Assembly: GCA_030264375.1 (NCBI GenBank)
Contig: JASCQW010000175.1
Span: forward strand, 4,058,333 to 4,122,332
Reading direction: 5' to 3'
DNA: 64,000 nt
Origin: Carcharhinus longimanus
Taxonomy: Eukaryota
Made by a program: the position numbers and the translations under genes. Of this stretch, positions 18,783 to 43,763 are shown piece by piece. Position 1 is the first letter of the stretch, and each line of letters starts with the position of its first letter. The notes beneath the pieces are model-generated. The model did no database searches. It saw nothing but the letters and a program-made list of their open reading frames with translations, and was not told the origin of the DNA.

Positions 18783-18845
18783 CTGGTTCTAGATGTAGAA
18801 TAGGAAAGCGTGTATAGAAATAGGCTCTCTGAAAGCTTTTTATCT
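18783..18845 (-). CDS. MYH9: Putative 63-nt alternative loop-2 exon, EIKSFQRAYFYTRFPILHLEP
   Basis: tctgtgtctgttgcag|AGATA...GAACCAG|gtgacg; phase 1-1, no stop, 21 aa; aligns with the MYH10 B2 insert EIQNIQRASFYDSVSGLHEPP (shared EI..QRA.FY.....LH..P). Confidence 0.85.
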
Positions 18846-39772: not shown

Positions 39773-39886
<114 letters not shown>

Positions 39887-43318: not shown

Positions 43319-43339
43319 GTATGCTAACACCGTAGACTG
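43319..43339 (-). CDS. MYH9: Putative 21-nt alternative loop-1 exon, QSTVLAY (18-nt STVLAY with the distal AG)
   Basis: ctttcccccttcaacatttgcag|CAGTCTACGGTGTTAGCATAC|gtgagt; phase 0-0, no stop; same length, position and Q...AY pattern as the MYH11 SM-B insert QGPSFAY. Confidence 0.8.
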
Positions 43340-43669
43340 CTGCAAATGTTGAAGGGGGAAAGTGTTATCAATGGCATGCAAAAATCTGTAAGAATTCTTC
43401 AAGCATTTACTTTGTTAAAGGGACTTAACAGCCTGAAAGGCAGTACGAAATGTTATGCTACAATAGATTCAAAATTACAATTTAAGTAGGGTAATTTTTT
43501 AAAAGGAAACAGGGCAATTATAATCAATATAGAGACTGATCACAATGTTTAGTATTGTATGTTTCAAATGAATTCCACACAGATTAAAAAGGATTTATTA
43601 TAAATAATGACCAGTGACTCTATTCTTATGAATAATATCGAGTAGCATACTAAGACAAAGGGCACTTAC

Positions 43670-43763
43670 TTGTTCCTTTCTAGATTTATGCGATGAAGCA
43701 ACATGAGCTAAGTACTGAATCACTTTCTTGGTGTTTTCTGTCTTACCAGCACCAGACTCTCCA
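43670..43763 (-). CDS. MYH9: MYH9 94-nt exon (exon 5 equivalent), P-loop [31 protein letters not shown]
   Basis: tttacag acceptor, gtaagt donor, Walker A motif GESGAGKT, ends phase 0 at loop 1. Confidence 0.97.

Follow-up and report, generated by a model that had tools for sequence, protein, structure and literature searches.

A likely alternative loop-1 microexon in the MYH9 gene of Carcharhinus longimanus, with counterparts in ray-finned fish and probable relatives in other myosin II genes

Inserts in loop 1 of the myosin II motor are known for MYH11, MYH10 and MYH14. MYH11 encodes the 7-aa SM-B insert (QGPSFAY in human, PMC13102872; QGPSFSY in the chicken structures PDB 6xe9 and 7mf3), MYH10 the B1 inserts, which come from a 10-aa N30 exon and a distal exon of 6-7 aa (Xenopus TESPKAIKHQSGSLLY, PMC2139948), and MYH14 the 8-aa C1 insert (PMC10480317, PMC2982113). 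MYH9, which encodes the heavy chain of non-muscle myosin IIA (NM IIA or NM2A), has a 21-aa A2 exon in loop 2 that inactivates the motor and is regulated by Rbfox in mouse (PMC10480317, PMC13158602), and the accessible text of these 2023 and 2026 papers gives loop-1 splicing for NM IIB and IIC only. A 64,000-nt stretch of the Carcharhinus longimanus genome (assembly GCA_030264375.1, contig JASCQW010000175.1, forward-strand positions 4,058,333-4,122,332; hereafter the window) raises the question of whether MYH9 also has an exon of this kind, as an earlier examination of the letters (the sequence-only reading) had proposed an SM-B-like microexon there.

The proposed exon, here termed A1, was found in the window as described, namely as a phase 0-0 exon of 21 nt with a pyrimidine tract, a NAGNAG acceptor (tttgcag/CAG, where the slash marks the exon boundary; C/T fraction 0.83 over the 18 nt before the exon) and a gtgagt donor, which is weak at exon positions -3 and -1 (TAC/GTGAGT). 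The loop-1 position claimed for it also holds, as it lies between the end of the exon encoding SHKSRKEQ and the start of the exon encoding GELERQ (Table 1). An in-frame, phase-0 exon of this small size, placed between the exons for the P-loop and for GELE, has the layout of a loop-1 insert, and QSTVLAY is placed in loop 1, beside the ATP pocket of the motor. A crude exon scan of the 3,789-nt intron, with approximate donor weights, returned three candidates, of which the microexon ranked first, an unrelated 75-nt stretch second and the 18-nt NAGNAG twin of the microexon third. The loop-2 exon A2 in the window is clearly homologous to A2 of turtle, bird and marsupial, and thus A2 dates back to cartilaginous fish.

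Table 1. Features of the MYH9 gene in the window (position 1 is the first nucleotide of the 64,000-nt window)
Feature	Position	Strand	Remarks
Loop-1 cassette microexon A1, 21 nt, phase 0-0	43319..43339	minus	reads QSTVLAY in frame
Upstream constitutive MYH9 exon, P-loop GESGAGKT and first half of loop 1 (...SHKSRKEQ)	43670..43763	minus	phase-0 donor gtaagt
Polypyrimidine tract and acceptor AG	43340..43362	minus	tandem CAG; possible second start 43336
Donor GTGAGT after Tyr codon	43313..43318	minus	same Tyr/GTGAGT ends the 21-nt exons of contigs C128 and C137
Downstream constitutive exon, begins GELERQ, ends ...SSRF	39788..39880	minus	phase 0
Rbfox-type UGCAUG hexamer, 41 nt upstream of microexon	43375..43380	minus	adjoins branch-point-like site 43371; candidate silencer
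Loop-2 cassette exon A2, 63 nt, in frame, intact	18783..18845	minus	1 residue off the Scyliorhinus canicula A2 insert

The identity of the gene was examined using tblastn, and residues 171-861 of a catshark myosin-9 model mapped from 43771 down to 756, placing head and neck exons in the window. For residues 1-170, no match of >70% identity was obtained within the upstream 20 kb (43800-64000); these residues are outside the window or within N gaps. Residues ~749-769 were likewise without a tblastn match in the window. The window exons share 98% identity with a myosin-9-like protein of Hemiscyllium, and in two trees they formed one clade with elasmobranch MYH9 (support 100/99). In the PDB, the shark orthologue P0002 matched human myosin-9 best (3421 bits, followed by myosin-10 with 3195 and smooth muscle myosin with 3154). 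These findings support the MYH9 identity given in the sequence-only reading, and on sequence grounds the gene is shark MYH9. In the tree that kept the loop-1 columns, which included one long cod row in which the loop-1 region is doubled, the MYH9 group was separated from MYH10 at 98/100. However, support for the MYH9 group including tetrapods was just 63/83 once named MYH11 and outgroups were added, a comparison made only in the head-region tree with an alignment starting after loop 1.

Three further copies were found in the genome, on contigs C137, C128 and C27 (the window contig being C175). The C137 copy is MYH10, with a 100% match to a named shark myosin-10 over the one exon tested, and the C128 copy is of MYH11 type as it bears the smooth-muscle motif LAVVASSHK. 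The C27 copy is assigned to MYH14 by elimination only, and neither tree resolved the placement of C27 and MYH14. EIF3D and an RBFOX gene are also located on C175, 7.5-8.4 Mb from the window gene, and in human EIF3D is likewise linked to MYH9. A copy of RBFOX is present on each of the four myosin contigs, four of each in all, which is the pattern expected of duplicated blocks (a paralogon). C137 also carries a cluster of sarcomeric myosin genes near 41.2-41.4 Mb.

If the window gene were a copy of MYH11, or if A1 were a silent pseudo-exon in C. longimanus, there would be no MYH9 loop-1 insert to explain, and the weak 63/83 node is the point in favour of a copy of MYH11. However, the identity to and grouping with elasmobranch myosin-9, the order of the PDB scores, the separate MYH11-type gene on C128 and the presence of EIF3D on the window contig all oppose it, and intact splice sites with an unchanged peptide oppose a pseudo-exon. 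We regard both versions as very improbable.

Evidence for use of the exon comes from related species. Among 51 listed elasmobranch myosin-9 proteins, to which one cluster contributes 15 of its 19 members, QSTVLAY is identical in 28 and exactly these seven residues are absent from the other 23, indicating that the exon is not a product of chance. The insert is present in 21 named elasmobranch species, and both forms were found among the listed proteins of 17 of them. The RefSeq isoforms are models. However, full-length proteins known only from Logan, including P0142, P0154 and P0155 with the insert and P0151-P0153 without it, are encoded by contigs of 6.3-8.0 kb, which are too short for the intron-bearing gene (>43 kb here) and must therefore stem from spliced RNA. 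A search of sequencing runs returned only Logan contigs that bear no tissue labels, with those labelled as RNA containing at most half of the query words. The alternative use claimed in the sequence-only reading thus holds in related sharks and rays, and conservation makes it likely that the exon is spliced in or out in C. longimanus too. The reading had further predicted up to four motor variants, and the RefSeq models X1-X4 of Scyliorhinus canicula match this, with both inserts, A2 only, A1 only and neither. A 6-aa form made by the NAGNAG acceptor, also proposed there, is possible by sequence, yet it was seen in 0 of the 28 inserted elasmobranch proteins and was rejected as a main form.

The weak donor would favour skipping of A1, and the UGCAUG hexamer upstream may add to this. 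Fox sites located upstream generally lead to skipping (PMC3082911, accessible text), and Rbfox proteins act on N30 of MYH10 and on A2 of MYH9 (PMC13158602, PMC3082911). However, UGCAUG occurs 24 times on the minus strand of the window (~0.4 sites per kb), and at this background the hexamer is a candidate silencer in the sense of a lead only.

Loop 1 including the insert was also used as a query, and the best 120 of 4,693 matches comprised 5 elasmobranch and 115 new rows. The 7-aa insert was present in 113 of these 115, all from ray-finned fish except for one unnamed row, and the remaining two were MYH10-like and MYH11-like. The myh9 insert peptide is QSSVLSY in bichir, QTAVLSH in gar and bowfin and SSSVLSH in zebrafish, for which both myosin-9 rows retrieved have the insert. 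Across the 113 inserted rows in this set, position 5 is always Leu and position 7 is His in 111 and Tyr in 2, while positions 1-4 are variable among the ray-finned fish. As an inserted loop used as a query favours inserted forms, the ray-finned fish rows speak to the presence of the exon and not to its skipping. The insert ends in Tyr in sharks and bichirs and in His in gar, bowfin and teleosts, which amounts to one change on the neopterygian stem.

No tetrapod was among the best 120 of the 4,693 matches, and of the tetrapod-type myosin-9 rows, 69 of which were readable at loop 1, none had the homologous 7-mer, as 67 lacked any insert and two had unrelated inserts. The latter, from Emys orbicularis (P0051, 6 aa) and Coturnix (P0097, 13 aa), are located at the same junction, but bear no likeness to the fish exon and were set aside; they are probably annotation noise or new exons. 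RT-PCR in mouse did not detect a loop-1 splice of NM IIA (PMC10480317, accessible text), in line with the statement in the sequence-only reading that canonical mammalian MYH9 lacks the insert, whereas its picture of the exon has to be widened to include the homologous exon of ray-finned fish and the forms already in RefSeq for the 21 elasmobranch species. These comparisons make it likely that the loop-1 exon was lost from MYH9 on the tetrapod side. The rows retrieved are representatives of 90%-identity clusters, with no MYH9 of coelacanth, lungfish or chimaera among them, and the absence from tetrapods is thus that of a sample and not proof.

A1 resembles the MYH11 SM-B insert in its junction before GELE, its seven residues, a Gln in the first and a Tyr in the last position and its use as a cassette, but it is found in MYH9 and differs in the middle, with 3 of 7 residues matching the human peptide. 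The loop-1 introns of the C128 and C137 copies were each found to contain, at the same junction, one 21-nt phase-0 exon ending in Tyr/GTGAGT. The C128 exon, which is known from the genome sequence alone as no database isoform was among the retrieved proteins, encodes QDPGFAY, matches human SM-B (PMC13102872) at 5 of 7 residues and is identical to the window exon at 13 of 21 nt (naive binomial P 0.0012). The likeness of A1 to SM-B first noted from the letters is therefore borne out by the junction, length and terminal residues, and by the nucleotide matches and donor of the C128 copy.

The C137 exon encodes SGTSLLY, and 24 of 39 elasmobranch MYH10 rows contain this peptide, including 6 that lack the 10-aa exon. 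It also matches the last residues of the 16-aa MYH10 insert of Xenopus (PMC2139948; P0378). Like this distal B1 exon, which is spliced independently of the 10-aa exon, A1 is a 21-nt exon with a terminal Tyr/GTGAGT in the same place. However, nucleotide identity is at chance level both for the window and C137 exons (6/21) and for the C128 and C137 exons (7/21), and in mammals B1 is confined to neural tissue. MYH9 showed no counterpart of the 10-aa exon. In the C137 intron, the 10-aa B1 peptide PISPKPVKHQ is encoded upstream of the 7-aa exon (L024:1552-1584), and among the 39 elasmobranch MYH10 models 18 have both exons, 7 and 6 a single one and 8 neither. The same intron includes a well-scored 45-nt candidate exon (L024:7487-7531) that resembles an extra segment in the model of Mustelus myosin-10 (P0289); it may be a third loop-1 exon of younger age or an artefact of modelling.

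The MYH14 insert C1 occupies the same loop as A1 and is one residue longer. No candidate exon was found in the loop-1 intron of the C27 copy, in a stretch where 1,709 of 4,101 bases (42%) are N. A frog and a turtle protein, taken here as MYH14 though their sources name neither so, have a loop ending in VSY before GELE. A2 of MYH9 itself is located in a different loop and has been kept in mammals, whereas a loop-1 splice was not detected in mouse.

The shared junction, length of 21 nt and Tyr/GTGAGT ending in the MYH11-like and MYH10 paralogues suggest that these exons likely derive from one that existed before the genes were duplicated. The pattern YAG-18 nt-TAY/GTGAGT, which was set post hoc from the MYH9 exon after the paralogues had been seen, is expected 0.001-0.003 times per intron. 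Its five matches on both strands of 299,296 bases were the window exon and the duplicate of its locus, both paralogues and an unrelated site (L006). Alternatively, the exon may be real and alternative while the inserts of MYH9, MYH10, MYH11 and MYH14 had separate origins at a junction tolerant of insertions. The chance-level identity of the MYH9 and MYH10 exons would fit such origins, as would the further exons in the same intron of MYH10 and the finding that loop-1 length varies freely among distant myosin II proteins. However, length, phase, terminal Tyr and donor are identical in three paralogues, the C128 exon has 13 of 21 nt in common with A1, the shared pattern is rarely expected in an intron, and only one of the 21 distant representatives in which loop 1 was readable, a turtle protein, ends in Tyr or His before GxLE. 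Independent origins are thus considered unlikely. No pre-duplication outgroup was found, as 21 of 150 distant representatives were readable at loop 1 and the ten looked up included no cyclostome.

Descent from a single exon that predates the vertebrate genome duplications is the simplest reading of these sequences and a probable one. In its fullest form, on balance favoured but held with less assurance, one Tyr-terminal microexon predates the duplications and gave rise to SM-B in MYH11, distal B1 in MYH10, C1 in MYH14 and A1 in MYH9, only the MYH9 of land vertebrates has lost it, and fish NM2A has a speed switch of the smooth-muscle type. If this is true, sharks and bony fishes, including zebrafish, kept the ancestral exon in MYH9 and would have an NM2A speed switch that mammals lack.

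The predicted effect on the motor follows from the known inserts. Inclusion of A1 would lengthen loop 1 at the nucleotide pocket, and a longer loop may loosen the pocket as in SM-B, so that ADP would be released faster and one gene could provide faster and slower NM2A in fish. An increase in loop-1 length has been linked to an increase in ADP release (PMC13102872, a review), and both the chicken SM-B insert (PMC3938199) and the C1 insert (PMC10480317, PMC2982113) raise ATPase activity and motility. The B1a insert has a small effect only (PMC10480317), and the human SMA/SMB pair was reported to be unresponsive to the insert, with no effect identified (PMC3938199). Faster ADP release in NM2A is therefore a prediction by analogy with smooth-muscle myosin, and the chance that NM2A is modestly faster with the exon included is put at about even or somewhat better.

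The exon may instead be conserved for a role other than speed, as a binding site, as a phosphorylation site at Ser, Thr or Tyr, or in folding of the inactive state, and its effect on kinetics would then be small. In all 28 inserted elasmobranch rows the peptide is the same, which is more than a role in length alone would need, and little or no effect has been measured for the human SM-B and B1a inserts (PMC3938199, PMC10480317). However, chicken SM-B and C1 do raise ATPase activity and motility, positions 1-4 vary in the ray-finned fish rows among the best 120 of 4,693 matches, and the replacement of the terminal Tyr by His in 111 of the 113 inserted rows of that set argues against a Tyr phosphosite. 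A role of this kind is rather improbable. The explanation we prefer, and hold with good though not full confidence, is that A1 is an in-frame loop-1 exon of MYH9, alternative in related sharks and rays and likely so in C. longimanus, and likely of common ancestry with those of MYH11 and MYH10; inclusion of A1 is predicted to speed ADP release and actin sliding.

The isoforms are already present in RefSeq and UniRef as plain myosin-9. A literature search, with most subscription journals and all supplements outside its reach, found no description of a loop-1 exon in fish or shark MYH9 or of a common origin of the inserts, and A1 is not mentioned in the accessible portions of papers on zebrafish myh9 (PMC11708221) and dogfish myosin (PMC6558913) or of a review from 2026 (PMC13031461). 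Another review, in its accessible text, lists MYH9 loosely beside MYH10 as having loop-1 and loop-2 insertions and cites a 1992 paper on B isoforms (PMC7566000). The name 'NMIIA1' (PMC12996664) was rejected as an isoform name, being a table label only in the part of that source available.

As the isoforms were already in automated annotation and this type of insert is well studied, the impact of the finding is limited. A1 is nevertheless the missing MYH9 member of the known family of loop-1 inserts, SM-B, B1 and C1, where it fills the empty NM IIA slot, and its presence in MYH9 suggests that these inserts are copies of one old exon. The two forms offer a natural pair, with and without the insert, for studying how loop 1 tunes ADP release in NM2A. 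As the zebrafish rows have the insert, MYH9 disease may be modelled in fish with a motor that differs from that of human.
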